A stretch of DNA of 63,979 nucleotides, counting the filler, from an uncultured Methanosarcinales archaeon (GTDB lineage Archaea > Nanobdellota > Nanobdellia > Woesearchaeales > CAYXTQ01), in the NCBI GenBank assembly GCA_964608065.1. It is 3 parts of 3 records of this genome, joined end to end, with 100 filler letters (N's around TTAATTAATTAA, not from the genome) between each part and the next. Parts side by side here need not be neighbours in the genome. Positions count along the whole stretch, not along the records: positions 24,202 to 47,005 come from CAZSMA010000009.1; 2 more parts are not named here. One strand, given 5' to 3'. The notes beneath the pieces are model-generated. The model searched no databases. It was not told where the DNA came from and saw only the letters and a program-made list of their open reading frames with translations. This document shows positions 5,573 through 47,105 of the stretch, in pieces. The position numbers were made by a program, and so were the translations under genes. Position 1 is the stretch's first letter. Each line of letters starts with the position of its first letter.

Positions 5573-5609
5573 AGACAGACTCACTAACGTTCGTAGCTTT
5601 CATTTAAAA

Positions 5610-10392: not shown

Positions 10393-13311
10393 ATGTCAAG
10401 GATAATAAAAAAGATAAGAAAAAGAGATGGCAGGATTGCCGAGTTTGCTAAAGAAAAAGTTACTAATGCCATATACAAAGCTGCTGAAGCTGTTTCTGGG
10501 CCAGAAGGAAAAAAAAGTGATAAAGCCTTAGCTGAGAAATTAGCTGATAAGGTTGTCACAATTCTCGAATATAAGTTTACTGAAAAAGAGACCCCTACAG
10601 TTGAGGAAATACAGGATGTAGTTGAAAAAGTTCTGATAAAAGAAGGCCATGCCAAGACAGCTAAACAATATATCCTATATAGACTTCAACATGATAAACT
10701 AAGGAAAACCAAAGACATGCTTCTGGATGTCAATGACACAATATCAGAATATTTAGACAGAACAGACTGGAGAGTTAAAGAAAATAGCAATGAAGATTAT
10801 AGTTTCTCTGGATTAATGCTACATACTGCTGGAAAAGTTATAGCAAGCTATGCTCTTAATGATATTTACACTCCTGCAATAGCAGATGCACATAGAGAAG
10901 GTTATATACATGTTCATGATTTAAGCCACGGTTTTATTGGATATTGCGCAGGCTGGTCTTTAAAAAACTTGTTGACAAAAGGTTTTGGAAATGTTCCAAA
11001 CAAAGTTGATGCAAAGCCTGCTAAACACATGGATGTTGTAGTACACCAGATGGTTAATTTTATTGGTTGTTTGCAGATGGAGTTTGCTGGAGCACAGGCT
11101 TTCAGTTCTGTAGACACTTTATTAGCACCATTTGTTAAAGTTGATAATCTAAATTACAAAGAGGTTAAGCAGTGTATGCAGGAATTAGTGTTTAGTTTGA
11201 ATATTCCGTCTAGATGGGGATGTTTTAGCGAGGATACAGAAATATTGACTGAAGCTGGGTGGAAATTAGGAAACGAGCTAGAAGTTGGAGATATTATAGC
11301 AACCTTCAATAAAGATACTGAGAAAATAGAGTATCTTCCTGTAAGGAAGATGACAAAGGACCACTATAAAGGTAAAATGTATAATTTGAAAAATAGAATA
11401 ATGGACCAGCTTGTTACACCAAATCATAGAGTTCTCAGAAGAATACATAATTTTGATGAAAATAAGTCAGAATCAAAATATGTTTTTGAGGAAGCAAGCA
11501 AACTTAAAACAAAAATTCCTCTTATACCTTTAGGAGCAAAATTTAGAGGCACTGATATGCACGAAGACTATGTAAAAGCATTAGCTTGGATAGTATCTGA
11601 AGGCAGCTTATGTAAAAATGAGAGAGTAGCTATACACCAATCATTTGTTAAGAATCCCCAGTATTGTGAGGAAATAAGAACATGCTTAAATAATCTAGAA
11701 ATACCTTTTGATGAACAAATAAAACAATCAGGATTCACAGGGGAAATGAGTACTTTAAGATTTAGGATTAACAGACCTTCTTCAAGGAATCTTTGTAATC
11801 AATTTTTTTCAGATTATGTTAAAAGAATTCCAGATGAATTAAGAAATTTGAATACAGACCTTATGAGAATATTTATAGACACTTATATGAAAGCTGATGG
11901 TCACCCACCTGAAAATAAGATATACACTAAGAAGAAAGATGATGCTGATGTTCTGCAGGAAATGATAGTAAAGGCTGGTTGGGGAAGTACATGCTATAAA
12001 AATAAGAACGGAATTTTTGTTGTCAGAGTAATCAAACATGAGCATTCACAGATAACATCAATAGAACAAGTTGATTATAATGGTATTGTGTGGTGTCCTA
12101 CAACTGAAAACAATACAGTAGTTGTCAGAAGAAAAGGAAAAGTATTCATCAGTGGAAATTCTCAATATCCATTTTCTAACTTGACATTTGACTGGACAGT
12201 TCCAGAAGACATGAAAAAAGAGAAAGCTATTGTAGGCGGAAAAAAACAAGACTTTACTTATGCAGATTGCCAGAAAGAGATAGACATGATCAACAAAGCA
12301 TTTATAGAAGTCCTGATGGAAGGAGATGCTAATGGAAGAATCTTTACTTTCCCTATTCCAACATATAATCTGACAAAAAACTTTAACTGGGACAGTGAAA
12401 ATGCAAAAGTATTGTTTGATCTGACTGCAAAATACGGTTCTCCTTATTTCCAGAATTATATAGGAAGTAATTTAGACCCAAAATCAATAAGAGCTATGTG
12501 CTGCAGACTTAATCTTGACCAAGTAGAATTAATGAAAAGGCCAGGAAGCATGTGGGGTCCTGGGGATAATACTGGAAGTTTAGGTGTTGTCACACTCAAT
12601 GTTAACAGATTAGGCTATGAATCTAAAACACAGGAAGAGTTTTTTGAAAAAGTAAAATATTATATGGAATTAGCAAAACAATCTTTGGAAATAAAAAGAA
12701 AAGTTGTAAATAAAAATCTTAAAAATGGTTTAATGCCTTATACAAAAACTTATCTTGGAACTTTCAGGAATCACTTTTCAACTATAGGATTGTGCGGAAT
12801 GAATGAAGCATGCAGGAATCTGCTTGGAAAAACAATAAAAGATCATGAAGGTAAAGAATTTACGATTAAAACCTTGAATTTCATGAGAGATGTACTGCAG
12901 CAGTTCCAGGAAGAGACAGGCAGCTTGTATAACTTAGAAGCAACACCAGCAGAATCTGCTGGCTATAGATTTGCAAGAAGTGATAAAAAACTTCATCCAG
13001 ATATAATTACAGCTGGTGATAAAGAGCCTTATCTGACTAATTCAACTCAATTAGGAGTTCATGAAACTGATGATATAGTTGAAGCTTTAGAACATCAGGA
13101 TGATATCCAACATCTGTACACTGGTGGAACTATCTTCCATTCATTCTTAGGAGAAAGAATGACAGATGGTGAATCTTGCAAACAATTAGTAAGAAAAATA
13201 GCAAACAATACTAGAATTCCATATTTTTCAATAACTCCTACTTTTAGCGTATGTCCTGAACATGGTTATGTTGTGGGAGAACATCATATATGTCCATTGG
13301 AGGTGAAATAA
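10393..13311 (+). CDS. nrdD: Class III (anaerobic) ribonucleotide reductase, ATP-cone + intein; lacks C-terminal glycyl-radical loop
   Basis: N-terminal ATP cone, IHVHDL, GYCAGW, AGAQAF, RAMCCRL, NLEATPAES, ends CPEHGY...CP. Confidence 0.95.
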   Translation: MSRIIKKIRKRDGRIAEFAKEKVTNAIYKAAEAVSGPEGKKSDKALAEKLADKVVTILEYKFTEKETPTVEEIQDVVEKVLIKEGHAKTAKQYILYRLQHDKLRKTKDMLLDVNDTISEYLDRTDWRVKENSNEDYSFSGLMLHTAGKVIASYALNDIYTPAIADAHREGYIHVHDLSHGFIGYCAGWSLKNLLTKGFGNVPNKVDAKPAKHMDVVVHQMVNFIGCLQMEFAGAQAFSSVDTLLAPFVKVDNLNYKEVKQCMQELVFSLNIPSRWGCFSEDTEILTEAGWKLGNELEVGDIIATFNKDTEKIEYLPVRKMTKDHYKGKMYNLKNRIMDQLVTPNHRVLRRIHNFDENKSESKYVFEEASKLKTKIPLIPLGAKFRGTDMHEDYVKALAWIVSEGSLCKNERVAIHQSFVKNPQYCEEIRTCLNNLEIPFDEQIKQSGFTGEMSTLRFRINRPSSRNLCNQFFSDYVKRIPDELRNLNTDLMRIFIDTYMKADGHPPENKIYTKKKDDADVLQEMIVKAGWGSTCYKNKNGIFVVRVIKHEHSQITSIEQVDYNGIVWCPTTENNTVVVRRKGKVFISGNSQYPFSNLTFDWTVPEDMKKEKAIVGGKKQDFTYADCQKEIDMINKAFIEVLMEGDANGRIFTFPIPTYNLTKNFNWDSENAKVLFDLTAKYGSPYFQNYIGSNLDPKSIRAMCCRLNLDQVELMKRPGSMWGPGDNTGSLGVVTLNVNRLGYESKTQEEFFEKVKYYMELAKQSLEIKRKVVNKNLKNGLMPYTKTYLGTFRNHFSTIGLCGMNEACRNLLGKTIKDHEGKEFTIKTLNFMRDVLQQFQEETGSLYNLEATPAESAGYRFARSDKKLHPDIITAGDKEPYLTNSTQLGVHETDDIVEALEHQDDIQHLYTGGTIFHSFLGERMTDGESCKQLVRKIANNTRIPYFSITPTFSVCPEHGYVVGEHHICPLEVK
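11221..12159 (+). mobile_element. Intein (313 aa) with LAGLIDADG-type endonuclease domain in nrdD
   Basis: Begins CFSEDTEILT, block B VTPNHR, LAWIVSEG and YMKADG motifs, ends VWCPT..RRKGKVFISGN followed by Ser; exteins rejoin as SRWG/SQYPFSN. Confidence 0.92.
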
Positions 13312-13313
13312 GC

Positions 13314-13469
13314 ATGGCATGTGAACAGAAATGCGAAGTGTACTCAAGGATAGTAGGTTATTTTAGGCCAGTGCACAATTGGAACCAGGGAAAAAGAGCA
13401 GAATTTGAAGACAGAGTAACATTTAGGGAAGATATTGCTTTAAGCAAAGAATTCAGTGAAAAATGCTGA
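13314..13469 (+). CDS. Stand-alone NrdD glycyl-radical domain peptide (51 aa; not in ORF track)
   Basis: MACEQKCEVYSRIVGYFRPVHNWNQGKRAEFEDR...; GGAGGTGA SD overlapping end of nrdD. Confidence 0.9.
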   Translation: MACEQKCEVYSRIVGYFRPVHNWNQGKRAEFEDRVTFREDIALSKEFSEKC

Positions 13470-15802: not shown

Positions 15803-16363
15803 ATGACAATACTAAGCGATAGAGATATTAAGAAACATTTGAAAGAATCTAAGATAGTTATTGAAGGATTAGAAGAAGATCAGATTGGCTCAAGCAGTGT
15901 TGATTTAAAGCTTGGCAGCCAATTCAGAGTTTTTAGGCATAGTGAAATGACTCATATCGATCCAAGAAAAAATGATACTAGTCACTTAACAACATTATAT
16001 GAGATGGAAGAGGATAAACCATTTATCATTCATCCTGGAGAATTTATTCTAGCTAACACTAAAGAATACATTAAATTACCAGATTTTTTAATAGCAAGAA
16101 TGGATGGAAGGTCTAGTTGGGGAAGACTAGGAATAGTTATACACAGCACTGCAGGTTCTGTTCACCCAGGTTTTGAAGGACAACTTACTTTAGAAATTAC
16201 AAACTTAAGCAAAGTTCCAGTCAAACTATGGCCTGGCTCAAAAATCTGTCAGTTAACATTTGAAACATTAAGCTCTCCTTCTGAAAATCCCTACAACAAA
16301 AGAAAAAGCTCAAAATATTTAAAACAAAAAGGGCCTAATGTAAGCAAAATTTCAGAGGAATAA
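15803..16363 (+). CDS. dcd: dCTP deaminase
   Basis: ILSDRDI, SVDLKLG, GRSSWGRLG, PGFEGQLTLE, ICQL. Confidence 0.95.
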   Translation: MTILSDRDIKKHLKESKIVIEGLEEDQIGSSSVDLKLGSQFRVFRHSEMTHIDPRKNDTSHLTTLYEMEEDKPFIIHPGEFILANTKEYIKLPDFLIARMDGRSSWGRLGIVIHSTAGSVHPGFEGQLTLEITNLSKVPVKLWPGSKICQLTFETLSSPSENPYNKRKSSKYLKQKGPNVSKISEE

Positions 16364-16365
16364 TA

Positions 16366-16584
16366 ATGGAAAAAATAAAGAAAAATATGACTTTAGGAGA
16401 AACAGTCCAGAAATATCCTGAAACAGTTGAAGTCATGTTCAAATACGGTTTGCATTGCATTGGCTGCCATGTTGCTGCTTTTGAAACAATTGAACAAGGA
16501 GCTTTAGCACATGGTCTGGATAAAAAGAAATTAGACCAGATGATTAAAGAGATGAACAAAGCAGTAACCAAAAAACAAAAATAG
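16366..16584 (+). CDS. DUF1858 domain protein
   Basis: YPETVEVMFKYGLHCIGC..ETIEQGALAHG. Confidence 0.85.
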   Translation: MEKIKKNMTLGETVQKYPETVEVMFKYGLHCIGCHVAAFETIEQGALAHGLDKKKLDQMIKEMNKAVTKKQK

Positions 16585-21620: not shown

Positions 21621-21653
<33 letters not shown>

Positions 21654-21676
21654 TTTAATTTCTGAGGTAATTTATA

Positions 21677-21745
21677 ATGGCTAAAAAAAAAAAAAAGGAA
21701 AAAAAAAAGAAAACAACAAAGAAAAAAGGTTGCTGTTGTTGTTAA
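21677..21745 (+). CDS. 22-aa Lys-rich peptide ending GCCCC (not in ORF track)
   Basis: MAKKKKKEKKKKTTKKKGCCCC; GAGGT SD; T-tract after stop; Lys count uncertain owing to A-runs. Confidence 0.6.
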   Translation: MAKKKKKEKKKKTTKKKGCCCC

Positions 21746-21870
21746 GTTTTTTTTTATTTTTTTATTTAATTCTAAAACCAAAACCAATGAAAATACTACG
21801 TATTTTTAAGGTTCCTATTTTGCTTCACAAAACAGATACCTTTAAATACTACATATGAATCCTTTTTCAT

Positions 21871-24101: not shown

Positions 24102-24201
24102 NNNNNNNNNNNNNNNNNNNNNNNNNNNNNNNNNNNNNNNNNNNNTTAATTAATTAANNNNNNNNNNNNNNNNNNNNNNNNNNNNNNNNNNNNNNNNNNN
24201 N
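24102..24201. other. Artificial contig linker (N-run with TTAATTAATTAA)
   Basis: 100-nt N block with all-frame-stop spacer. Confidence 0.98.
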
Positions 24202-24514: not shown

Positions 24515-24790
24515 CTATTCATCCTCCTTATGTTCTTCTTCCCCTGTATCGCCCTTTCGTTTAACTTTTATTCTTTTATAGCCTGAAAGAGTCTTATCGT
24601 TATTGAACTTAACCTCATATATTCCTATAATGTTCTGCGTGTCTGGAATTGCCTTCCTTTCTAACACTTCAACCTGTGCTAACCATCCATTCCCTTCTTT
24701 GTTCAATCTGGTAACACTTAAGGGTTCTTTTCCGACTAAGTTTTTAATTGTATCCTTTGCTTTTTTTGTTAATTCTTCAAAATCTGCCAT
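24515..24790 (-). CDS. gvpO: Gas vesicle protein GvpO (GvpO/GvpR family)
   Basis: GWLAQVEVLERKAIPDTQNIIGIYEV...YKRI..KRGD family motif; in gvpN operon. Confidence 0.9.
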   Translation of the reverse strand: MADFEELTKKAKDTIKNLVGKEPLSVTRLNKEGNGWLAQVEVLERKAIPDTQNIIGIYEVKFNNDKTLSGYKRIKVKRKGDTGEEEHKEDE

Positions 24791-24799
24791 CTTTGCCTC

Positions 24800-25159
24800 C
24801 TATGGAATAAAAATATGATCTTCTTCTAGATCCACTTTTTTCCCTTTCCATTCTTTTATGCCCTTCCTTAAATTATATTCTTCTGGATTTTTTACCTTAA
24901 AATAATATTTCAAAAACCTTGCAAGTTTTTCCCTTCTGGCATGACTTAGCCTGCTGGGCGTTTTCAAATTAAAAGTCCCATCAGGTTTTATGCAAGTAAA
25001 GAAGGTCTCCTCTATTTTTTTATCGCCTGCTTTAACGGTAACAATTATAACATCGGTATCATTAAATGCAAGCTGCTTCGGTTTCCTTTTCCACAAATCA
25101 AAAACATCATAAATCTTTGCATTCTGAATGACTGCTTGCTTTACCATCTTTTTGATCAC
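24800..25159 (-). CDS. Hypothetical protein between gvpN and gvpO
   Basis: ORF tightly spaced in operon with GAGGTGA SD. Confidence 0.7.
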   Translation of the reverse strand: MIKKMVKQAVIQNAKIYDVFDLWKRKPKQLAFNDTDVIIVTVKAGDKKIEETFFTCIKPDGTFNLKTPSRLSHARREKLARFLKYYFKVKNPEEYNLRKGIKEWKGKKVDLEEDHIFIP

Positions 25160-25174
25160 CTCTTTATTTTTTTT

Positions 25175-26185
25175 CTAATTTAGTTTTTTAATCTGTTCTT
25201 TTATAATGTTCCTTTTCTTTTCTACATCTTCAAAGTCTCTAAACTTAGAACCTATCGCATCAACGCATATCTGTTCAAAAAATTCTTTGCCGTGACCATT
25301 TGAATTTTCTAAGCTTTTAGCTATCATTATTGCAGGTCTTGTTCCAGGTTTCTCTGCACCATCTAAAACCTCTCTCAAGTTTCTTATAAGGCTGATTATT
25401 TTTTCTGCTTCCATATGGGAAACTTTACTATGGGCTTCAACAATTTTAACTTCTGTGTCCTTGTCATAATAATTCATATGTATAGCAGGCATCCTGTCCA
25501 GTAAAGCATCCTGCGGCTTATGCACACCAGCATACTCTACATTATTACTTGTCAATATGACATTAAAATCTGGATGAACTTTGACATACCTATCTTCTCC
25601 AAATTTAGTTGGCAACTCCAAAACCCCTTCTTCAAGTATTGAAAGCAAAACATTGTTTGCCTCTGGTTTTGTCCTGCTAAACTCATTATAGATCAACGTG
25701 TAACCATTCATACATGCCAGGGTTAATGGATTTGAAACCCACATAGGTTCAATTACATCCTTGTCTTTGTAAACATTATGGATATATTTATCTCTTAAAC
25801 TACTCATTTCAATTTTTGAATAGCCACCAATCAAATCTGTTGTAGTTATTGCTTCATCCCCATTTATCCATACTGCTGGCTTTCCAAGCTTCTCTGCCAC
25901 TCTGATAGCCAGAGCAGTTTTTCCACAACCAGTAGGACCAATGATATGAATAGGGTATCCAGCTTTAAGCCACATATCTACTCTGCCCATATAGGATTTT
26001 ACTGTTTCTGTTTCAACAAAATTTTGTGATTTAGGTGCTAAGAATTTAGCTTCAACACTCTCTTTTCTTTTTTCTTGCTTTTTCTCTTCTTTTGATCCTC
26101 TTGCTATTTCAGATTTTCTTTCTTCTAGGGTTCTATCGACTGCACCGCCCCTTTTTTTTCTACCATGTGTACTTATATATCCCAT
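25175..26185 (-). CDS. gvpN: Gas vesicle AAA+ ATPase GvpN
   Basis: GYPIHIIGPTGCGKT, NPLTLAC..GYTLIYNEFSRTKPEANNVLLSILEE, EYAGVHKPQDALLDR. Confidence 0.95.
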   Translation of the reverse strand: MGYISTHGRKKRGGAVDRTLEERKSEIARGSKEEKKQEKRKESVEAKFLAPKSQNFVETETVKSYMGRVDMWLKAGYPIHIIGPTGCGKTALAIRVAEKLGKPAVWINGDEAITTTDLIGGYSKIEMSSLRDKYIHNVYKDKDVIEPMWVSNPLTLACMNGYTLIYNEFSRTKPEANNVLLSILEEGVLELPTKFGEDRYVKVHPDFNVILTSNNVEYAGVHKPQDALLDRMPAIHMNYYDKDTEVKIVEAHSKVSHMEAEKIISLIRNLREVLDGAEKPGTRPAIMIAKSLENSNGHGKEFFEQICVDAIGSKFRDFEDVEKKRNIIKEQIKKLN

Positions 26186-26376
26186 TTTTTTTGTTCTCCC
26201 CCTGTTTTTGTTTAAAATATTTTTAGAGTAATTATCAAAAATTTAAACTCTAGTTGCTTTCTAAAAATTTTTAGATTTATAAACTCTTTTAGAATATCGA
26301 AACTCGACACGAAAAGTTACAGCAAGAAAAATGAATCCGAGATTAGAACTAAAAAATAAAGAAAGGAATAAAGTTT

Positions 26377-26712
26377 TTACTCTTTACCCTGACCAAAATA
26401 GAAATCCTTTGTATAAGCCTGGTTTGTTCTTCCCTGTTCTCTTATCACACCTTCTATCTTTTTTACGGCAGCGTCCACTTCTCTACCTTTTTGTGCTATT
26501 CCACTTTCTACTTTTTTAACTCCTGCGTCTATTTCTCTACCTTTTTGTGCTATTTTATCTCCTACTTTTTTAATGCCTGCTTCTATATTATGAATAGCTG
26601 CTGTATTAGTCTTCACTTGCTCTTTTATTGTTCCATGTATTCTACTTACAGCGGATCGCACTTCTGAACCTTTTCTTTCTATGGCATTGATTTTTTGTTT
26701 GACTGAAGCCAT
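26377..26712 (-). CDS. GvpC-like repeat protein
   Basis: Between gvpA and gvpN; amphipathic 18-aa repeats IAQKGRE(I/V)DA(G/A)VKK. Confidence 0.65.
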   Translation of the reverse strand: MASVKQKINAIERKGSEVRSAVSRIHGTIKEQVKTNTAAIHNIEAGIKKVGDKIAQKGREIDAGVKKVESGIAQKGREVDAAVKKIEGVIREQGRTNQAYTKDFYFGQGKE

Positions 26713-26780
26713 TTTTTATCATCTCCTTTTTTTTTATTTTTAATTGTTAAATATTATTCTTGTCCAAATTTAAAAAAAAT

Positions 26781-26799
26781 AGGGAGAGAAAAATCTCCC
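26781..26799 (-). terminator. Hairpin + T-tract after gvpA
   Basis: GGGAGA-gaaaaa-TCTCCC stem followed by T-run on minus strand. Confidence 0.55.
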
Positions 26800-26811
26800 T
26801 TAAAAATTTTT

Positions 26812-27036
26812 TTAAGCTTTAGCAGGTGCTGCTATAGCTGCTTGTTCGATCTTGGTGATCTCTTCTGCGTAGTGTAGGAATGTGTCTACTGATGCTACGA
26901 CTACTCTAGCTTCTATTGTTAGCAGTTCAATACCGACAAGTGAAACTCTTACCCATAGATCTACAACGATACCTTTGTCTAGAATCCTGTCAAGCACTTC
27001 TGCTAAACTGGATACGTCTGGTCCTTGGTTTACCAT
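26812..27036 (-). CDS. gvpA: Major gas vesicle shell protein GvpA
   Basis: [60 protein letters not shown]. Confidence 0.97.
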
Positions 27037-27203
27037 GTTTATCAACCTCCGTTTTTTTATAAGTAGTGTGAACTACCATTAGTCTTTCATAAAGATTTAT
27101 TATGTTTATAAACCCTTTTGAGATATCAAAAGAAATGTCGAAAATCGACACAGGTTTAGGGATAGTAAAAACATATATAAAATACAAAAAGTTCTCTTCA
27201 AGG

Positions 27204-27965
27204 ATGGCAGAAAAAAACCTGGATGATAATTTAGAAAAGACGAAACTAGAATTTCTTAATATAGTATCTCATGAATTGAAAACCCCTCTAACTCCGATGA
27301 TAGCATACCTTGATTTACTGCTAAAAGGAAAGTTGGGCAAACTGACAAAACAACAGAGAGAAGCTTTGGAAACAGTTACAAAAAATACCAAACAATTAAG
27401 GCATTTAATCTGGGACATATTAGACTTAAGCAAACTTGAAGCAGGAAACATGAGATTTAACATGCGACAAATAGATCTAACAGAACTAATTAAAGAAGTT
27501 GTAAAAAACATGGAAACAGTTGCAAAAGAAAAAAGCATAATTATAGAACCAAAAATAAGACCCTTGCCGATAACAGAAGCGGACAGGGAAAGACTGACTC
27601 AAGTGATAACAAACTTAATAAGCAACGCTATAAAATTCACACCAAGAAAAGGAAAAATAATTATAGAAACAAAAAAAAGAGGTTACAGCCTAATGATATC
27701 AGTAAGCGATACAGGCATAGGCATACCAAAAAAACAATTGGACAATATATTCACTAAGTTCTTCCAAGTTGACAGTAAAACATCAAGGAAGTATCAGGGA
27801 ACTGGCTTGGGACTAACGATATGCAAGGGGATAATTAATGCGCATGGTGGAGACATTACAGTTGAAAGCACACCAAGAAAAGGGTCAACATTCCACATAA
27901 AACTGCCATACAAAAGCTTGGGAAAACCTACAGAACTATTCATGGAGGCGTTCAAAGAAAAATGA
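27204..27965 (+). CDS. Cytoplasmic histidine kinase (HisKA+HATPase, no sensor domain)
   Basis: SHELKTPL, NLISNAIKF, DTGIG, GTGLGL; divergent from gvpA. Confidence 0.92.
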   Translation: MAEKNLDDNLEKTKLEFLNIVSHELKTPLTPMIAYLDLLLKGKLGKLTKQQREALETVTKNTKQLRHLIWDILDLSKLEAGNMRFNMRQIDLTELIKEVVKNMETVAKEKSIIIEPKIRPLPITEADRERLTQVITNLISNAIKFTPRKGKIIIETKKRGYSLMISVSDTGIGIPKKQLDNIFTKFFQVDSKTSRKYQGTGLGLTICKGIINAHGGDITVESTPRKGSTFHIKLPYKSLGKPTELFMEAFKEK

Positions 27966-28798
27966 AACATAAAATAATGCACGTAGACGACAATAAGGAT
28001 ACCAGGGAAGCAGTAAAGCTAGTCTTGGAAAGCGAAGGTTATAAAGTTATAAGCGTGAACAACGGAAAAAGCTGCTTAAAAAAACTTCAAAAAGAAAAAC
28101 CAGATTTAGTACTTCTTGACATGATGATGCCTGACATGTCCGGATGGGATATTTTTCAGAAAATAACAAAAGATAAAATAAAAACAAAGGTGGCTTTTCT
28201 TAGCGTGATGTCAATCGAGGAAAGCAGGAAAAGAAACTTCTACAAAAGTGGAATAGCAGACTACATCTTAAAACCATTTATAACTGAAGATTTTATAAAA
28301 AGGATCAAAAAAATATTAACAAAACCAATAAAGGGAAAAAAAGTCAAGGGAAAATTAATAATAAAAGATTTTATAAAAAGGACGAAAACAAAAAATGAAG
28401 CGAGACTGCTAAGTGAAGTGATAACAAACATGCTAATACTTCAAACACTAAAAATGGACTATACTCCAGTGCAGAATATTTTAAGAAAGACGCTGGTAAA
28501 AATTAAAAAACTAATAAACACAGAATCAGTGTGCAGTTTCCTAACGGAAAAAGAAAGGAACTTAATCAAGATAGATGAAAATCTGAATGATTCGACAAAA
28601 AAAGAATTGGCTAATAGATTTAAAGTCATGGTAGGGTCAAGCGGGTTGTACAACATATTTCTAAATTGGGAAAAAAGAGGAATAATAGAAAGCGACACAG
28701 ACTACAGGGGGAAGCTGCACAAGATAACAAAAAGGGGTTGCAACGGAAGAAAGCTTCTGTTAGAATATCTTCTACAAAAGCATAAAAATTTATTGTAA
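27962..28798 (+). CDS. Response regulator: REC domain + PadR-like winged helix
   Basis: VDD, LLDMMMP, KPF; C-terminal SGLYNIFLNWEKRGII..HKITKRG. Confidence 0.85.
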   Translation: MKHKIMHVDDNKDTREAVKLVLESEGYKVISVNNGKSCLKKLQKEKPDLVLLDMMMPDMSGWDIFQKITKDKIKTKVAFLSVMSIEESRKRNFYKSGIADYILKPFITEDFIKRIKKILTKPIKGKKVKGKLIIKDFIKRTKTKNEARLLSEVITNMLILQTLKMDYTPVQNILRKTLVKIKKLINTESVCSFLTEKERNLIKIDENLNDSTKKELANRFKVMVGSSGLYNIFLNWEKRGIIESDTDYRGKLHKITKRGCNGRKLLLEYLLQKHKNLL

Positions 28799-29121: not shown

Positions 29122-29871
29122 ATGGTGACGAAAATAGTTGTTTCAAATCAAAAAGGTGGTGTAGGCAAAACCGATTTGTGTGTTAACCTCGCAACTGCTT
29201 TGGCAAGCAAGAACAAAAAAGTTCTACTAATTGACATGGATCCTCAAAGTAACGCAACAGATTACGTACTTTCTGAAAAACCAGAAAAAACGGTTTACAA
29301 CCTTTTGACTGAGGATGAGATATATGCAGAAGATATCATACAAAAAACAGGTGTTAGAAACCTAGATATCATGCCTTCAGATCCAAGGCTGAGCGCAACA
29401 CAAGTAATGTTAGCAAATGATGTTCGTATGCAATTCAAGCTAAAACGAAAAATAAGTGACTTAGAAGGTTATGACTATATTTTCATCGACACTCCACCTT
29501 CAGTAGGTCTACTAACGCTTAACGCATTAACAGCCGCTGATAAGGTATTGATACCAATACAGACGCATTACTTTGCAATGGACGGAGTAGCAAACCTGAT
29601 AAAAACAATCGATGCTGTAAAGGAAGACATAAACCCTGGACTAGAATTTGGTGGTGTCGTGTTAACGATGTACGACAGAAGAACTAAATTATCTGCTGAA
29701 GTTACAAAGGCGGTCAAAGAAGCATTCAAGGATAAAGTTTTCAGTACAATAATACCAATAAACGTGAAACTAGCAGAATCACCAAGCCATCATAAACCTA
29801 TAGCCTATTATGCTTCATGGAGCACAGGCGCAAAAGCATATGAAAAGTTGGCAGAGGAATTCATGCGATGA
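29122..29871 (+). CDS. parA: ParA/Soj family ATPase
   Basis: NQKGGVGKT, IDMDPQ, IDTPPS, LAESPS. Confidence 0.93.
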   Translation: MVTKIVVSNQKGGVGKTDLCVNLATALASKNKKVLLIDMDPQSNATDYVLSEKPEKTVYNLLTEDEIYAEDIIQKTGVRNLDIMPSDPRLSATQVMLANDVRMQFKLKRKISDLEGYDYIFIDTPPSVGLLTLNALTAADKVLIPIQTHYFAMDGVANLIKTIDAVKEDINPGLEFGGVVLTMYDRRTKLSAEVTKAVKEAFKDKVFSTIIPINVKLAESPSHHKPIAYYASWSTGAKAYEKLAEEFMR

Positions 29872-30185
29872 ATGAAGGCAGCAAAAGGTTAGGGGGAAAT
29901 CCTTTAAGTTCTTTAACAAACGAAGAGAAAGGAGAGTCTTCAAAGATATTAAGGGATAACCTGATAAGCTATAAAGCCAGGAAGAGATGTGTGCATCTGA
30001 AATATTCTGAGAATTATGAGCAGCATCAATGTGATAGCCCAAGATCCAGACAAAGAGGATTGCTAGGTAAAGATTGGATGGATAAATGCAGGCAGTGTCA
30101 TGTAAAGATTCTAGATGATAAAGAACCTGAGTCTCAAAATAGGGCTAAGCCTGGAATGATAACTAAGATTCTGAGCATACGGTGA
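29868..30185 (+). CDS. Putative ParA partner protein
   Basis: ATGA overlap with parA; N-terminal KRLGGNPLSSL; Cys/His residues. Confidence 0.6.
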   Translation: MNEGSKRLGGNPLSSLTNEEKGESSKILRDNLISYKARKRCVHLKYSENYEQHQCDSPRSRQRGLLGKDWMDKCRQCHVKILDDKEPESQNRAKPGMITKILSIR

Positions 30186-30300
30186 ACGACCATTACCTAA
30201 TTGTTAGTTGAGGAAGTGGCTTCTAAGTTCATACTCTTTTGAGAGTAATCATCCTTAGTTAGGGTTAGTTCATCTGTAGCCCCTGCCTTCTTTATGAAGG
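30182..30300 (-). mobile_element. Degenerate IS200/IS605 (tnpB) right-end / omega-RNA-like remnant
   Basis: Minus strand GGCAGGGGCTAC...ATGAACTTAGAAGCCACTTCC...TAGGTAATGGTCGTTCAC resembles tnpB 3' ends terminating in GTTCAC. Confidence 0.55.
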
Positions 30301-30487
30301 ACTTGTTACTGAGATAGGGTATGCTTTTCTTAGCAAGTTTTATACATAATAAAATGCTTAACCTTTATATATCTTACGTGCACACTTGTCGCGTGTCGCA
30401 TACCCAAAGGATTTCCGACGCTGATAAAAAATTTCCGGGCTGAAAAGCGAAAGTTTTATATATTACTATGTATTACAAAGGAATACA

Positions 30488-30754
30488 ATGCAAGTCGTAA
30501 CTGTAAAATTCCAGGAACCTGTACTCAAAAAAATAGACAAAAGCATAACTGAGCACAATTTTAACTCAAGAACTGAATTCATAAGAGAAGCAGTTAGAGA
30601 TAAACTAGCTGATCTCAGCAAAGAAGGACTAATCAAGGAATTCTTAAAATTTAGAGGCAAGACAAAAAAGAAAACTAGTTACGAAGAAAACAGAAAAACA
30701 AGAAAAATAATAAGCAAAGAACTACTGCAAGAACTGGAAAAAAGATTTAGCTAA
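30488..30754 (+). CDS. Ribbon-helix-helix (CopG/NikR-like) protein
   Basis: VVTVKF..LKKID..FNSRTEFIREAVR. Confidence 0.85.
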   Translation: MQVVTVKFQEPVLKKIDKSITEHNFNSRTEFIREAVRDKLADLSKEGLIKEFLKFRGKTKKKTSYEENRKTRKIISKELLQELEKRFS

Positions 30755-31172
30755 TCTGTTCAGGCCTCACCGCTCTTGAAATATCTGAAAGGCTTTTGAG
30801 ATAATGATCGTCCTGTGAAACAAGTATTGCTCTATAATTTCTTGCATGTATCGCATTTAAGCAGTCAACAAAAGGTAAATCTCTTTCTTGAGCTAACTTT
30901 TTGGCTTCAGAGTATTCTTCTTTAGTAATATTAACATTAATAAGTATCTTATTCAAAAATATAAGGTTCAGCATGTTATTAACCTCATTTTCTTTGTAAT
31001 CTTTTTTCAACTCCCATATCAATGCTTCTGAAAAAATAATCTCATCTTTATTCTTCAAAATTTTAACAAATAGATCGGTGGCATATCTTCCAAGAGGTCT
31101 TCCAGATTTACTAAACCTATTTTCATAAAAATCTCTCCAGATACAAGTATCTAACAAATATTTTCCCACCAT
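30747..31172 (-). CDS. PIN-domain (VapC-like) ribonuclease
   Basis: YLLDTCIW, WEL, FVDCL, LVSQDDH. Confidence 0.85.
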   Translation of the reverse strand: MVGKYLLDTCIWRDFYENRFSKSGRPLGRYATDLFVKILKNKDEIIFSEALIWELKKDYKENEVNNMLNLIFLNKILINVNITKEEYSEAKKLAQERDLPFVDCLNAIHARNYRAILVSQDDHYLKSLSDISRAVRPEQIS

Positions 31173-31410
31173 TCGTCTGAAAGAATTAGATTTCTTTTAT
31201 ATTCGTTCCCCCAAAATTTAGAAAGAATTTCCGGAACAAAAAGCGAAGCAGGCCTCGATAATGCAAAGAAAAAGCCTCGAAAATGAAAACAAAAATAGGA
31301 CTCGGTGTTGGAAAGGAAATAGAGGTTAGGTTTTTAGGTTAGAAGGGCTGTGGTGGTGGAATTTTGATAGTTGGGTCTCGATAATGAAAAATGGTTTCAC
31401 ACAGTTGAGT

Positions 31411-31755
31411 CTATTTTATAAATTTAAGAACTTCTTTATGAATGTTAGAATAAGTTTTGAGCATGTCTTTTCTTAGTTTTTCACCTTCAGGAGTTATATG
31501 GAATACTTTTTTTGCTCCAGTCTTTTTTATTTTTAATAATTTACTCTTTTTTAACTTCATAATTATAGGGTGCAAAGTGCTGCCATTGATAGGAATGTCA
31601 AACTCTCTCAGAAACCAGTTGCTTAACTCTTGCCTGCACATAGGCTCTTTCTTGAGAGAATTTAATATTAGAATGTCAGTTAATGCCAATATTACTCTTT
31701 TGTTGAGTTTTTCTTTATTCGTTTTAATCATTTTGTTATATGGGCATATGTCCAT
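31411..31755 (-). CDS. PadR-family transcriptional regulator
   Basis: DILILNSL..P...EL, GSTLHP, KVFHITPEG. Confidence 0.8.
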   Translation of the reverse strand: MDICPYNKMIKTNKEKLNKRVILALTDILILNSLKKEPMCRQELSNWFLREFDIPINGSTLHPIIMKLKKSKLLKIKKTGAKKVFHITPEGEKLRKDMLKTYSNIHKEVLKFIK

Positions 31756-31851
31756 ATTTAAATATGTTTTGTTTTAAAATTTATTCAAAAATAATTGATT
31801 AAATACATAATGACAGATGATATATTTCAAGAAAATTTAGAACTTTTCTTT

Positions 31852-32115
31852 TCAGTTTATTCTAAGACTTAATAATAGTTTTTTTACTTGCTGATTTTTA
31901 ATATCATAAATTATATTCTTACCTTTTTTCTTATATTTCAGAATCTCTGCTTCTACTAGTATTTTGAGATGTTTTGAAACAGTTGTTTGGTTTTTCTTTA
32001 CTATGAGTGCAAGATTACCGGCACAGTGTTCACGATTACTTAAGAGATGTTTAACTATCTTAAGCCTTGTTTCATCACCTAGAGCTTTGAAAAATTTTAC
32101 TTTATTTTTAACCAT
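31852..32115 (-). CDS. ArsR-family regulator
   Basis: FKALGDETRLKI, QTTVSKHLKIL. Confidence 0.88.
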   Translation of the reverse strand: MVKNKVKFFKALGDETRLKIVKHLLSNREHCAGNLALIVKKNQTTVSKHLKILVEAEILKYKKKGKNIIYDIKNQQVKKLLLSLRIN

Positions 32116-32257
32116 TCATTATAGTTATCGATTCATAGAACTTATAAATTTAGTTTTATTATCGAACTTCGATATTTAATTTGAAATTTTTTGTTTTATG
32201 GAATCAAAAATTTCTTTATTGACTTTAGAATAATTTCCAATTAAAATTTTCCTTAAC

Positions 32258-32358
32258 TTTTCACCTTCAAATGTTATATGGAACACTTTTTTTGTTCCAG
32301 TTTTTTTATTTTTAACAGCTTATTATTTTTTAGTTTCATAAGTACTGGATGCAAAACT
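32258..32358 (-). pseudogene. Degenerate partial duplicate of the PadR gene at 31411-31755
   Basis: TTTTCACCTTCA..GTTATATGGAA.ACTTTTTTTG.TCCAG.. matches ~31478-31578 with indels. Confidence 0.75.
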
Positions 32359-32479
32359 ATTAATCTCTAAAACTTTGAATGTGTTTATTTCTGTTTCACA
32401 AATCGATTTATGAAATAACTATATAAAAAAAGGAAATAAAATAATCTAGATATAACAAAAAATCGGGGGTGAAGTTTTA

Positions 32480-32680
32480 ATGAAAGTTAAAATCATAACA
32501 ATTTTAATAATTTTTTTGTTGCTGTTTCTCATATTTGTATACGCTACTACTTTTAAGAAAGAAATTTCAAAAACAACAGCAGCAATACTAACTCTAGAAT
32601 CTACTAAATCAAATGGAGGACAAGCGCACGTCGGTATATATGTAATTCCTTTAAAGCAAAATATGACTGATAAAATCTAG
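32480..32680 (+). CDS. Small exported/membrane-anchored hypothetical protein
   Basis: GGGGGTGA SD, N-terminal TM. Confidence 0.6.
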   Translation: MKVKIITILIIFLLLFLIFVYATTFKKEISKTTAAILTLESTKSNGGQAHVGIYVIPLKQNMTDKI

Positions 32681-32697
32681 AAATTAACCATCAGGAA

Positions 32698-33054
32698 ATG
32701 AAAGAGAGTTTTAATGGAAGCAAAATCTTTTTTAGTACTACTTTACATCTTTTGAATGTTATAGCCCTCTTGACTATAGCATTACTCTTAATATTCTCAG
32801 ATTCAAATTTGACTGGGAAAGTGTCTTTTGAGACTGGTGTTGACCCTTCAAATGAGACTAAGGCTAATCCTTCAAATAATAAAGTAAGGACTTGGACTAA
32901 AGCAATATGTAATGAAGAAAATTATTGTATTGATATTCTAATAACATGCGAAGGAAGCAAGGTAGTTAATCTAAAACCATTTCCAGAAGGTGTTCATTTT
33001 TCAAAAGAATGGGAAGATTCAAGACCCGAAGCGTTTAGAAGTGTATTGTGTTAG
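32698..33054 (+). CDS. Membrane-anchored hypothetical protein
   Basis: N-terminal TM, LTGKV, TWTKAICNEENYCIDILITC. Confidence 0.65.
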   Translation: MKESFNGSKIFFSTTLHLLNVIALLTIALLLIFSDSNLTGKVSFETGVDPSNETKANPSNNKVRTWTKAICNEENYCIDILITCEGSKVVNLKPFPEGVHFSKEWEDSRPEAFRSVLC

Positions 33055-33124
33055 TATTCAGAGTGGATAGTTGAGAGTTTAAAAATTTCTGTTTCACTTG
33101 TAAGTATTAAAATCGATTAACGAT

Positions 33125-33598
33125 TTGAGAGTGGTATCGGTTTTTAACACAATAATCTTTATATATGACTTTCATCCAATAAAAAAAGGGTTAGGAGTTC
33201 TAGTAAAATATATATTGAATTTAAAAAACGTGGTGCAGAAATTGAAGTTAAATAAAAACAACCATTTAGAGATTCTAAGAAAAAATGTTGTAAAAAGTAT
33301 CATGGATGTATTAATACTACAGATACTTAGAAACAACAAACTTTGCGGCAACGAAATAATAAGCAAACTGAGAGAAGAGTTTGGAGAGGTTAACTACGGC
33401 CATGTATATTCGGCATTGAACACCTTTGTAAAAAAAGGTTTATTGACTTATGAAAACGGAAACGGTAATGGAAATGGAAACGGTAATGGCAACAGAAGAA
33501 TATGCAAACTAACAGAGCAAGGCGATTTGATTAGAAAACAGTTAACGCAAAACTACATCGACATAGACAAACGTGTCAAAATGTGCTTTTATGATTAA
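33125..33598 (+). CDS. PadR-family regulator with (GN)n wing expansion
   Basis: KSIMDVLILQIL..GNEII..YGHVYSAL..KKGLL..KLTEQG; NGNGNGNGNGN repeat. Confidence 0.75.
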   Translation: MRVVSVFNTIIFIYDFHPIKKGLGVLVKYILNLKNVVQKLKLNKNNHLEILRKNVVKSIMDVLILQILRNNKLCGNEIISKLREEFGEVNYGHVYSALNTFVKKGLLTYENGNGNGNGNGNGNRRICKLTEQGDLIRKQLTQNYIDIDKRVKMCFYD

Positions 33599-34328: not shown

Positions 34329-34997
34329 CTATACAGGCGCTGTCAAGTACTTTGCTAATTTTCTTGCTGTGCCTTCTCTGCTTTTTAAGAAAAAGATTTT
34401 TTGATACTCTTCAACCTTCGCTTTCTCTTTAATTTCTTCGACCTTGATATCTTTGTTTAACAATGGGATAATGTTATGGTATGCTCCTATGAAAATGATG
34501 CCATCTTTAACAAGAGTCTTATTTATCATGTTTGCAATAAACTTATCTCTTTCAGCAAGCAGTTTATCCTTAACCATCTTGTAATGCAGAGCGCTTATTA
34601 ATTTCTTCAACTTAGAATCAGAGTTTGCTATCTTCTTGATAATATCTACCTCTTTCATCAGTATTTTCATATCCTCTGTCTTCATTATCCTTGCACTTTT
34701 AGAGACCAGGTATTTTATTATCTGGTAGTTCTTGCTTCCTTTGGCAGCAGCGCTATTGACCACTTTCATGCCAAGCTCGCCATCCGCCAGCAAACCATCC
34801 TGGTAGATCTGAAAACCCTTTGCATTCAAGGATTTGAAATACTTTGATATAGACTCCCAAAACCTGGAAATAGTCTCTTTATGCCTTTCCCAACCTTCTG
34901 TACCAATCATCGCTGAGCCCCTATCTTCTAGATTGGATGCTATACTGCCCATGTCAGCACCGCTATGGATTATTGGGACGTAGATAAGCGTTCTCAT
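34329..34997 (-). CDS. Conserved hypothetical protein ([11 protein letters not shown] type)
   Basis: YVPIIH..DMGS, IYQDGL, GSKNY, KTE, RDKFIA, FIGAYH; coupled to cdc48. Confidence 0.8.
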
Positions 34998-37279
34998 AGT
35001 CCCTCCTTCTCGTATTGATCCCTTACTAAATCCTTAGCAATTTCTGCCTCAACTACATCGCCTTGCTTTACTCCAGCTTTTTTCATATCCTCTTCTGTCA
35101 TCTTTGCTATGAGCTTCTGGCCATCAGCGATAATTTTCACAATCTGCTTTTTTCCTTCCCTTTTTTTCTTTACGATAGTCAATGCTTTTTCAAAATGCTT
35201 ACTGGTTATTTTAAATTTCTTGAAATCATTCTGGACAGATTTGGTCTTCTGTATAAACTCTCTAATAGCCAAGTTGGAAGCTACCATGCACAGGGCCGAT
35301 ATGTCAGCACCGCTATAACCCTTGGTTTTCTCAACTAATTTAGCCATGTTAACATTAGCCAAAGGCTTGCCTCTGCAATGTATTTTCAGGATTTCCTGCC
35401 TTGTTTTCTTGTCCGGCAGACCAATTTCTATTATCCTGTCAAACCTTCCAGGCCTTAGCAAAGCAGTATCCATCATGTCTTTTCTATTGGTTGCAGCCAG
35501 AACCAAAACATCCTTCAAATCCTCCACACCATCCATCTCTGTTAATAGCTGAGAAATGATCCTTTCACTGGTCCCGGAGTCTCCACTCCTACTGCCTCTT
35601 TTCGGGGCTATTGAGTCCATCTCGTCAAAGAATAGTATAGTCGGGGCTGCCTGCTTTGCCTTCTTGAATATTTCTCTCAGCCTTTTTTCTGATTCGCCGA
35701 CATACTTTGAGACAAGCTCAGGTCCTTTGATGGATATGAAATTAGTTTCTGATTCGTTGGCAACAGCTTTGGCAAGCAAGGTTTTTCCTGTACCAGGCGG
35801 ACCGGTTAACAGGATGCCTTTAGAAGTTTTTGTATGTGCATAATCATAAAGCAAGGGGTATTTTAGGGGCCATTCAACTGTTTCTATGAGTTCCTGCTTG
35901 GCATCATCCAATCCCCCTATATCAGACCATTTAACATCCGGTATATCAATGCATACTTCCCTCATCGCTGACGGTTCAATGCTTTTCCAGGCTTCATCAA
36001 AGTTAGCCTTTGTCACCTTTAAATTACTTAATACATCCTTAGGGATATCATCATCTATATCAATCTTTAATGCTATCTCCCTCAAAGCATGCATCCCTGC
36101 CTCTTTACATAGAGCAGCCAGGTCAGCTCCTACAAAGCCGTGCGTTTTGCTTGCTAAGTAATCAATGGTCTCATCTTTTTTTTCTAAGGGCATTCCCCTA
36201 GTATGAATCTGAAGAACTTCCTTTCTTCCTTCCTTGTCAGGAACACCTATTTCTATTTCCCTGTCAAACCTTCCGCCTCTCCTTAAAGCTTCATCTAAGA
36301 TGTCTGGCTGGTTTGTGGCTGCGATAACAATTACTTGGCCTCTAGCCTTAATTCCATCCAGCAAAGTCAGCAGTTGTGAGACTACTCTTCGCTCTATCTG
36401 TCTTTCACCGCTCATTTCTCCTCTTTTTGGAGCTATGCTGTCTATCTCATCTATGAATATTATTGATGGAGCTTCTGCTTCTGCTTGTTCAAAAATTTCT
36501 CTCAGGTTAGCCTCGCTGTCGCCATAGTATTTTGTGATTATTTCAGGGCCTTTTATAGAAAAGAAGCTTGCTTCTGATTCGTTGGCAACAGCCTTGGCAA
36601 GCAAGGTTTTTCCTGTTCCTGGAGGACCATGCATTAAAATCCCTTTCGGGGGGTCTATGCCTATCTCTTGGAAAAGCTCAGGATGCCTTAGAGGCAGTTC
36701 TATCATCTCCCTGATAACAGCTGTTTCCTTCCTTAAACCGCCTATATCCTCATAAGTTGTTCCTGTTCCAGTTTCCTCACCTACTGGCTTTTCTTTAAGA
36801 ACGATAGATGTTTCATCTGTTACCATGACAGTCCCTGAAGGGCTGGTACTTGTGATCGTAAATGTTATGGGGTCCCCCAGCATCTCAACCCTTATCTTCT
36901 GTTTCTCTATCACAGGCCTTCCTTTCAATACCTTACTAAGATACTGGCTTCCTTTGATTATCCTGACAGTCTGGTTAGGAGCTATCACTATCTTCTTGGC
37001 AGGTTTAGATTCTATTTTCCTGATAGACACTTTTTCTCCTATGCCTACTCCTGCATTGCTCCTTATATCCCCCTCTATCTTTATGGTCTCAATACTGGAA
37101 TCATCAGGATAATCAGGCCATACGATTGCGCTTGTTGTTTCTTTACCTTCTATTTCTATAATATCACCACTAACAAGGTTTAATTTCTGCATATTCTTGT
37201 TATGCATCCTTGCTATGCTCCTGCCAACATCCCTGTGCCTTGCTTCCACTACAGATAATAGCATCTTTTTCATCTTCAT
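34994..37279 (-). CDS. cdc48: CDC48/VCP family AAA+ ATPase
   Basis: N-domain RDVGRSIAR, two GPPGTGKT domains, [15 protein letters not shown]. Confidence 0.95.
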
Positions 37280-37728
37280 AATTTTCTAAGATTGATCTCT
37301 AAAACTCCATTTTTGTAAGTCCATTTTTTTGTTAATTTAACCTTTGAAGATATATCTAGCTCTTTATAGTATTTTTTGTCTTTTGTGGAAATGATTAATC
37401 TGTTCTTTGCTAATCTTAGTTTTATGTCTTTTTTATCTGTTCCTGGCAGTTCTGCGATTACTTTTAAAAATTTTCCTTCGTCGAACAGGTCTACCATTGG
37501 CTCTTTTTCTTCAGCTTCTGGTCGTATTTCTTTTTTTTGTTCTTTTTTGAAGTCTTGTGATTTTTTAAGATCGCTTACATTGAAATTGCTGCTGACAACG
37601 AACTCTTTTCCCTTTGATGTTTTGAAGTTCTTAGTTCCTTGAAGTTTGGATAGTTCATCTAGCATCGGCATTAGTTTGTCGAGAAATCCGAAATTCAGGT
37701 TTATTCCCTTATCTTTTTCTTTTTTCAT
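37276..37728 (-). CDS. Hsp20/alpha-crystallin protein (GvpH-like)
   Basis: [24 protein letters not shown]. Confidence 0.88.
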
Positions 37729-37985
37729 TTTTTCTTCTCCTTGGTCTTTACTTCTTTTATACCTGCTGATTTTATCAGTTCTGTGATATGTTTCGGGAGT
37801 TCTTTACCTTCTATAACTCCCTTGCCTAAGTTGCTGTAGAGTTTAAGTGCTTTTTCCAGCAGGTCTGCTATGTCCCCTTTTTTCCATTCTCCTTGGATCT
37901 GCATGTCTACCAGTTGCGCTTCTCCGAATATTTTTGCGCTGATCTTGGTAGCGATTATCCTTTTCTTTTTTTGTTCTTCAACCAT
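37725..37985 (-). CDS. Hypothetical protein, first gene of hsp20-cdc48 operon
   Basis: ATGA overlap with hsp20; ATG close to TATA box (possibly leaderless). Confidence 0.7.
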   Translation of the reverse strand: MVEEQKKKRIIATKISAKIFGEAQLVDMQIQGEWKKGDIADLLEKALKLYSNLGKGVIEGKELPKHITELIKSAGIKEVKTKEKKK

Positions 37986-45973: not shown

Positions 45974-45977
45974 TTAT

Positions 45978-47005: not shown

Positions 47006-47105
47006 NNNNNNNNNNNNNNNNNNNNNNNNNNNNNNNNNNNNNNNNNNNNTTAATTAATTAANNNNNNNNNNNNNNNNNNNNNNNNNNNNNNNNNNNNNNN
47101 NNNNN
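47006..47105. other. Artificial contig linker
   Basis: N-run with TTAATTAATTAA. Confidence 0.98.

Follow-up and report, generated by a model that had tools for sequence, protein, structure and literature searches.

Could an archaeon of the DPANN group carry the means to build gas vesicles? The question is raised by a cluster of gvp genes in a stretch of 63,979 bases (assembly GCA_964608065.1), referred to below as the window, which is made up of three contigs (1-24101, 24202-47005 and 47106-63979) and has the cluster at the left end of the middle one. The DPANN archaea are described as very small, genome-reduced and mostly host-attached; a buoyancy organelle that costs at least 10 genes runs counter to what genome streamlining would lead one to expect, and a gas vesicle fills a considerable part of a cell of that size. 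The answer that we propose, and consider quite likely, is that a genuine gas vesicle cluster is represented in the window by its structural operon, that its owner is a DPANN archaeon (under the public label of Nanoarchaeota), and that the cluster has been cut off by the end of the contig. By analogy with the gas vesicle systems already characterized, vesicles would then presumably be made and give buoyancy to the cell.

The three contigs are joined by artificial linkers (N44 + TTAATTAATTAA + N44, at 24102-24201 and 47006-47105), and the contig break at the end of the gvp cluster is a real one. No rRNA or tRNA gene was found in the window. The Pfam search covered 82 of its 85 called open reading frames (ORFs), all but those at 13290-13469, 16335-16571 and 21635-21787. 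The comparison set consists of 80 loci (gvpN with 10 kb on either side), the best 80 of 604 stretches matching GvpN, from which 15,663 frames were compared by blastp with all window frames of at least 30 amino acids. Since these loci were picked by their similarity to the GvpN subfamily of the window, the fractions given below are not representative of all gas vesicle clusters. The loci cited most often are L001 (Candidatus Iainarchaeum), L003 and L004 (Methanoperedens-like), L005 (Methanocellales) and L009 and L027 (Bathyarchaeia); a DPANN-type genomic context is available, among the loci listed, only for L001 and for one Altiarchaeota contig of 4 kb, the nearest Nanoarchaeota contigs not being among the 80.

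The structural operon

The minus strand between 24515 and 27036 carries five intact, co-directional and closely spaced ORFs, which code for GvpA, a protein made of 18-residue repeats, GvpN, a protein of 119 amino acids and GvpO (Table 1). The operon described in the initial annotation is genuine, and the family cut-offs are passed for all three named proteins. GvpA scores above the curated threshold of PF00741 (4.5e-16, 59.1 bits for a cut-off of 25) and passes the cut-offs of two NCBIfam models, NF006874 (130.3 bits, cut-off 100) and the haloarchaeal NF046092 (129.1 bits, cut-off 112). GvpN reaches 334 bits against the equivalog TIGR02640 (cut-off 266.8) and matches AAA_5 at 5.6e-17; GvpO matches PF05800 at 9.4e-20, with 70.9 bits for a cut-off of 25. 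At the level of sequence families, these assignments are thus confirmed as matches at curated thresholds and not the product of chance. The conserved core of GvpA can be aligned with that of solved shell subunits, 8gbs_A1 from Anabaena (2.3e-23) and 7r1c_N from Bacillus megaterium (6.5e-21), and the protein is 92-93% identical to the GvpA of L001, L005 and L009. In GvpN the P-loop is intact, its Walker A motif (GPTGCGKT) being invariant in the GvpN alignment, and GvpO is 53% identical to its counterpart in L001.

The second gene, located 99 nt downstream of gvpA, had been called gvpC-like, and this label holds only by position and repeat structure. Its product is, as would be expected of a GvpC, a hydrophilic tandem-repeat protein encoded directly after gvpA, and its 18-residue periodicity is clear: self-similarity at offset 18 is 1.13, compared to a maximum of 0.51 in 300 shuffles. 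On the other hand, no Pfam or NCBIfam family, that of GvpC included, was recognized in it even at E-values of up to 5, and a comparison with PDB sequences gave nothing better than an E-value of 0.23, solved GvpC being left unmatched. The repeats of GvpC have a length of about 33 residues in cyanobacteria and of 32-40 in haloarchaea. The same slot is taken by weak homologues of the repeat protein in L001 (E 1e-9) and in 7 of the 80 loci.

The fourth gene, for which the initial annotation gave no more than 'ORF', is indeed present, but it is not filler: judging from sequence comparison, it is a conserved family, which we call orf119. Homologues were detected in 25 of the 80 gvpN loci, 24 of them archaeal, and the one of L001 (L001:11057-11422; 63% identity) has the same position in the cluster. 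A search of 1.84 billion proteins gave 56 representative clusters at E≤1e-3, and the nearest Atlas clusters consist of hypothetical proteins of Nanobdellota and Methanobacteriota. The AlphaFold2 (AF2) model is a confident one, with a predicted local distance difference test score (pLDDT) of 91.1, and the fold search against the PDB returned 0 matches at E≤1e-3. An assignment as a phage T4 RegA-like protein (Atlas score 0.91) was rejected, as it finds no support in the fold search, where the best hit was an OB-fold protein, 8s4t, with an E-value of 0.02 and a TM-score of 0.46. Because a Shine-Dalgarno-like motif, GAGGTGAT, precedes ATG 25147, this codon is the likelier start of orf119.

The archaeal expression signals reported earlier are found as well. 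There is a TATA-like element, TTATAAAAAA, upstream of gvpA, and Shine-Dalgarno-like motifs precede gvpA (GGAGGT, 8 nt upstream of the ATG), the repeat gene, gvpN, orf119, gvpO and a truncated regulator gene starting at TTG 24380, as well as two genes, orf150 and orf222, of a second operon presented below. A terminator-like hairpin followed by a run of eight T lies directly 3' of gvpA. The region has 4 such hairpin and T-run sites for 3.0 +/- 1.9 in shuffled sequences, which is not above chance, and only the position after gvpA is therefore noteworthy. A scan for sigma-70 promoters gave counts that did not exceed those of shuffles; this consensus is not informative for archaea.

The contig end and the accessory genes

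According to the initial annotation, gvpF, G, J, K, L and M were not visible and could lie beyond 24201; the analysis confirms the first statement for the window and lends support to the second. Neither Pfam nor blastp detected gvpF/L, G, J, K or M in the 64-kb window, the two other contigs included, and no second GvpA-type gene was found among the Pfam-scanned ORFs. A complete cluster, with these genes beside gvpA, gvpN and gvpO, is thus not seen within 64 kb, and the cluster runs into the end of the contig. What stands there is the truncated regulator gene: the 62 amino acids encoded at the edge align with the N-terminus of a regulator from L001 (L001:6231-7112; 46% identity, E 3e-15) and with one from L003 (L003:10354-11151; 44% identity, E 4e-12), and homologues exist in 16 of the 80 loci. 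This regulator, with PadR and MEDS domains, sits after gvpO and before gvpF in L003, L009 and L027. The gene order of L009 and L027 is that of the window (A, repeat protein, N, orf119, O, regulator) and continues with gvpF, gvpG, a gvpJ-like gene and gvpL; that of L003 is the same but for the lack of orf119; J-like, K and L genes come further downstream of the regulator-gvpF pair in the relatives. Because the truncated gene precedes gvpF-gvpG in these relatives, gvpF, G, J, K, L and M are to be expected just beyond 24202, and the fact that the contig ends inside the regulator gene explains why they are lacking in the window.

A search with the GvpL of L001 found GvpL/F proteins labelled Nanoarchaeota, and one of them, a GvpN match and a CDC48 match are each on a contig of 74,284 bases. 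Equal contig sizes were also noted for GvpN and CDC48 (59,413 bases) and for GvpN and GvpL/F (51,367 and 28,126 bases). Among the GvpN matches themselves, P0012 and P0038, and likewise P0027 and P0035, are different proteins whose longest contigs agree in length (12,398 and 29,988 bases, respectively); some DPANN-type contigs may thus carry two gvpN copies or two clusters.

Lineage of the contig

The initial annotation had further taken the contig to be DPANN-like. Its grouping with DPANN is supported by three sequence-based proxies that agree with each other: the GvpN clade, the best matches of a CDC48 protein encoded on the same contig, and tetranucleotide usage. The top GvpN matches (82-78% identity) bear no taxon label; the labelled ones, from 71 to 64%, belong to metagenome-assembled genomes (MAGs) of Nanoarchaeota, Aenigmarchaeota, Diapherotrites and Micrarchaeota, and those at about 60% to Thermoplasmatota, Methanobacterium and Altiarchaeales. 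A GvpN tree of 107 rows was rooted on 12 bacterial rows and computed by a quick LG+G4 search, with support from the Shimodaira-Hasegawa-like approximate likelihood ratio test (SH-aLRT). It places the window in a clade of 32 rows (SH-aLRT 95), of which the five labelled ones are four Nanoarchaeota and one Aenigmarchaeota; an enclosing clade of 45 rows (SH-aLRT 99) adds Micrarchaeota and Diapherotrites/Iainarchaeum, and all its 7 labelled rows are DPANN. Methanogens, Thermoplasmatota and Bathyarchaeia fall outside the clade of the window.

Over 84% coverage, the CDC48 protein does not differ from a partial protein that bears the Nanoarchaeota label (100% identity), and the next labelled matches, at 64-68% identity, are from Nanoarchaeota too. 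The public names of the relatives give 'Nanoarchaeota archaeon' and nothing as specific as Woesearchaeota. As to composition, the tetranucleotide correlation of the gvp contig with its flanking contigs is 0.82 and 0.87 (the flanking pair reaches 0.90 between themselves), against 0.72 at most with ten other loci. Its GC content is 0.32, for 0.30 and 0.32 in the neighbouring contigs and 0.38-0.45 in the gvp loci of methanogens and Bathyarchaeia. The flanking contigs carry housekeeping genes, namely those for an RFC-like clamp loader, translin, class II aminoacyl-tRNA synthetases and NrdD.

Neighbouring genes

The initial annotation captured the gvpA-N-O cluster but missed two other elements of the contig, a kinase/regulator pair and an operon with a candidate GvpH-like small heat-shock protein (sHSP), CDC48 and orf222. 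The pair is divergent from gvpA. Homologues of the histidine kinase are found near gvpN in 32 of the 80 loci (19 archaeal, 13 bacterial), and in archaeal loci, e.g. L003 and L004, they are likewise divergent from gvpA; the figures for the response regulator are 36 of 80 (19 archaeal, 17 bacterial).

The second operon (34329-37985, minus strand) consists of orf86, orf150, CDC48 and orf222, with overlapping stops and starts. Neither a homologue in the 80 loci nor a family above threshold was found for orf86. The sHSP assignment of orf150 is made at the level of its family: 55 of 60 aligned members match PF00011 (HSP20) and 9 of 60 match PF05455 (GvpH), the family profile aligns with the sHSP 4rzk at 1.1e-29, and homologues occur in 66 of the 80 loci (35 archaeal, 31 bacterial). 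Within 10 kb of gvpN, 47 of the 80 loci (19 archaeal, 28 bacterial) encode a homologue of CDC48. For orf222, homologues with up to 54% identity are present in 31 loci (17 archaeal, 13 bacterial and one Altiarchaeota locus for which no domain is given); its Atlas clusters contain only hypothetical proteins, its AF2 model has a pLDDT of 91.0, and no PDB entry matched it by sequence or by fold (best E 0.04). When both sHSP and CDC48 are present, which is the case in 43 loci, the sHSP gene is directly upstream of CDC48 in 12, all bacterial (L044, L045, L049, L052-L054, L056, L060-L062, L077 and L078).

Table 1. Features of the gas vesicle contig, with positions along the window
Feature	Position	Strand	Remarks
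PadR/MEDS-type regulator gene, 5' end, 62 codons, cut by contig end	24202..24389	-	homology to L001 and L003 regulators
gvpO	24515..24790	-	PF05800
orf119, unnamed protein conserved in gvp clusters, encoded between gvpN and gvpO	24800..25159	-	likely start ATG 25147
gvpN, AAA+ ATPase	25175..26185	-	TIGR02640, AAA_5
111-aa hydrophilic protein, about five 18-residue repeats, candidate GvpC analogue	26377..26712	-	no family match
Terminator-like hairpin + T8, directly 3' of gvpA	26781..26800	-	7-pair stem, 4 GC pairs
gvpA, major gas vesicle shell protein, 74 aa	26812..27036	-	start ATG 27036; TTG 27045 also in frame
Histidine kinase, divergent from gvpA	27102..27965	+	HisKA 3.5e-19, HATPase_c 3.9e-34
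Response regulator, start overlaps kinase stop	27962..28798	+	Response_reg 2e-26
orf222, conserved unnamed protein downstream of CDC48	34329..34997	-	locus homology
CDC48/VAT-type double AAA+ ATPase	34994..37279	-	CDC48_N, CDC48_2, two AAA domains
orf150, probable small heat-shock (alpha-crystallin) protein, GvpH-like	37276..37728	-	family-level match
orf86, first gene of sHSP-CDC48 operon	37725..37985	-	stop overlaps orf150 start

Between and beside these modules, at 29122-33598 and 38382-38888, there are genes for ParA, RHH, PIN and PrgI-like proteins, together with two PadR regulators and one ArsR regulator, and because of them the contig looks partly plasmid- or island-like. ParA-type ATPases are encoded near gvpN in 5 of the 80 loci, L001 included. 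Further along the contig, a minus-strand ORF (43939-44694, 251 aa) with C-terminal zinc ribbons has weak matches, both below threshold, to the HAP2/GCS1 fusogen family (PF10699; 3e-6, 26.5 bits for a cut-off of 27.4) and to the archaeal fusexin Fsx1 (NF053506; 28.6 bits for a cut-off of 650); the two ORFs upstream of it, at 44966-46892, matched no family.

Two observations concern the first contig. An AMP-binding domain (acyl-ACP synthetase-like) is split over two overlapping plus-strand ORFs, 5547-6431 and 6415-8070, which cover profile positions 9-277 and 283-384; PP-binding and acyltransferase domains are also found in the second of them, and a frameshift or an assembly error may be responsible for the split. 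The anaerobic ribonucleotide reductase NrdD (10393-13311, plus strand) has its NRDD domain matched in two stretches and, at 972 aa, is long for its family, so that it may hold an insertion.

Weighing the alternatives

A number of facts weigh against the proposal that this is the structural operon of a gas vesicle cluster belonging to a DPANN archaeon. Concerning the cluster, the repeat protein lacks any GvpC family match, orf150 taken alone stays below the Pfam thresholds (ArsA_HSP20 0.0091, HSP20 0.036), gvpF/L, G, J, K and M are missing from the window, and the same-contig linkage in the Nanoarchaeota relatives is deduced from equal size only. Concerning the lineage, no more than 7 members of the 45-row DPANN clade of GvpN have a taxon label, the tree comes from a quick search without bootstraps, the 'Nanoarchaeota' labels of the relatives derive from MAG binning, and genes resembling those of plasmids or mobile elements (ParA, RHH/PIN, PrgI-like and the weak fusexin-like match) are found on the gvp contig.

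The last group of facts could be accommodated if the gvp contig were a plasmid, an integrated mobile element or a mis-binned piece of DNA, the real host being perhaps a co-occurring methanogen, a member of Bathyarchaeia or one of Thermoplasmatota, and DPANN vesicles a binning artefact. The mobile-type genes, to which HEPN-like small genes may be added, imply that the identity of the true host rests on binning and composition, and the labels of the relatives share this dependence on MAGs. That gvp contigs do get mis-binned is illustrated by L035: it is titled Nitrospirae bacterium, but its GvpN is sister to that of Methanoperedens (SH-aLRT 100), and the archaeal orf119 and a PadR/MEDS regulator are present, so that its DNA is probably archaeal and has ended up in a bacterial bin. 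We nevertheless think that such an origin is improbable for the contig studied here. Its GC content is that of its neighbours, and its tetranucleotide usage correlates better with theirs than with that of the ten loci, methanogen and Bathyarchaeia ones among them. Both GvpN and CDC48 are nearest to proteins labelled Nanoarchaeota, not to those of methanogens, and in Ca. Iainarchaeum the cluster is on a contig of 87.8 kb together with genes for a thermosome and a class I tRNA synthetase.

More improbable still is a non-functional or repurposed remnant, in which only gvpA, the C-like gene, gvpN, gvpO and the chaperones would have been kept, the nucleation genes being gone and no vesicles made: the absence of F/L, G, J, K and M from all three contigs would fit, these being essential in Halobacterium according to the available part of PMC6107691, but the ORFs are intact, GvpA is very highly conserved, the contig stops within the regulator gene after which gvpF comes in relatives, and related DPANN and Nanoarchaeota-labelled records do contain GvpL/F.

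Proposed functions and significance

If the preferred explanation, a truncated cluster of a DPANN archaeon, is correct, then the roles of its products may be sketched by homology with the haloarchaeal, cyanobacterial and Bacillus systems. The shell, ribbed and permeable to gas, would be a polymer of GvpA, a GvpC-like stiffener bound to its exterior is probably provided by the 18-residue-repeat protein, and GvpN, an AAA+ ATPase, and GvpO would support the assembly or growth of vesicles, while orf119 may be an accessory protein specific to archaeal clusters. The hairpin and T-run after gvpA would yield gvpA transcripts in excess over read-through, and expression of the gvp genes would be under the control of the PadR/MEDS regulator and of the kinase with its response regulator, encoded divergently. 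The sHSP-CDC48-orf222 operon, with orf86, probably acts as a chaperone or unfoldase system, by which small Gvp proteins that tend to aggregate are kept soluble. In it, orf150 would act like GvpH, which in Haloferax keeps GvpM soluble, as stated in the accessible text of PMC6107691, and the unfolding or recycling of these small Gvp proteins may be the task of CDC48.

A wider generalization is that gas vesicles are a trait inherited lineage-wide in DPANN and that their assembly needs components for which the model systems offer no description, namely the orf119 family, the PadR/MEDS regulator and the sHSP-CDC48-orf222 module, which has a link to gvpN in 47 of the 80 loci, bacterial and archaeal, and would be a general factor for assembly or recycling. 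Its basis is that one GvpN clade spans Nanoarchaeota, Aenigmarchaeota, Micrarchaeota and Iainarchaeota. We put it forward tentatively, as we find it rather doubtful; if it is true, ultra-small cells would control how they themselves float, or how the host that carries them does.

Are gas vesicle genes in DPANN archaea new? The initial annotation presented them as unexpected, but as sequence data they are not new: GvpN, GvpL/F and related proteins are already annotated in DPANN MAGs, public annotation naming GvpN in those of Nanoarchaeota, Aenigmarchaeota, Diapherotrites, Micrarchaeota and Altiarchaeales, and a full set exists on the Ca. Iainarchaeum contig. No paper reporting gvp genes of DPANN archaea was found in the literature searched (subscription journals and supplements being outside it). 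The sole DPANN paper found to mention gas vesicles concerns, in its available part, haloarchaeal hosts, and in PMC9258230 the term appears in the reference list only. Nor did the same literature yield a paper in which a link between CDC48 and gas vesicle clusters is made; in the accessible portion of PMC6107691, Cdc48d is mentioned only as a non-specific binder of the Ni-NTA matrix.

The value of the window is limited because the cluster is truncated and many equivalent DPANN loci have been annotated. If vesicles are made, this would bear on a planktonic, free-floating phase of DPANN lineages, on host finding in stratified anoxic waters, and on the minimum width of a functional gas vesicle. 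Also, orf119, orf222 and CDC48 with the sHSP are candidate missing factors for the engineering of gas vesicles as acoustic reporters.

Comparison with known gas vesicle clusters

The closest comparator with genomic context, among the loci listed, is that of Ca. Iainarchaeum (identities of 64% for GvpN, 63% for orf119 and 53% for GvpO). This DPANN contig has the full gene set in two parts, the first being gvpA, the repeat protein, gvpN, orf119 and gvpO, and the second a divergent operon with the PadR regulator, gvpF, gvpG, HSP20, J-like genes, gvpK, gvpL and an M/J-like gene. The window shares with it the order of the first part and a homologous regulator; in L001, however, the regulator does not follow gvpO but heads the divergent operon, and no CDC48 match was found within the 10-kb flanks, unlike in the window.

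The p-vac and c-vac regions of Halobacterium salinarum have, according to the available part of PMC6107691, the layout gvpACNO with a divergent gvpDEFGHIJKLM. The likeness lies in the order gvpA, repeat protein, gvpN, gvpO, in a GvpA that scores above the haloarchaeal NCBIfam cut-off, in the terminator-like element after gvpA and probably in an HSP20-type, GvpH-like protein. The differences are these: N and O are separated by an additional conserved gene, orf119, the repeats of the second protein are of 18 residues and it matches no GvpC family, a kinase and a response regulator take the divergent place of gvpD/E, the regulator is of the PadR/MEDS type, there is a CDC48-orf222 module, and F to M are not seen owing to the contig break.

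The loci from Bathyarchaeia (L009, L027), Methanoperedens-like archaea (L003, L004) and Methanocellales (L005) resemble the window in the core of A, repeat protein, N, orf119, O and PadR/MEDS regulator, and they have the kinase and response regulator, sHSP, CDC48 and orf222 nearby. Unlike the window, these loci run on into gvpF-G-J-L, and their GvpN proteins, only 54-58% identical to that of the window, are in separate clades. In the two Bathyarchaeia loci GvpF/L is fused to a DnaJ domain (L027:17020-19961 and L009:18112-19098), followed in L027 by Hsp70. Finally, the putative sHSP of the window is directly joined to CDC48 in an operon, an arrangement otherwise seen only in the 12 bacterial loci among the 43.

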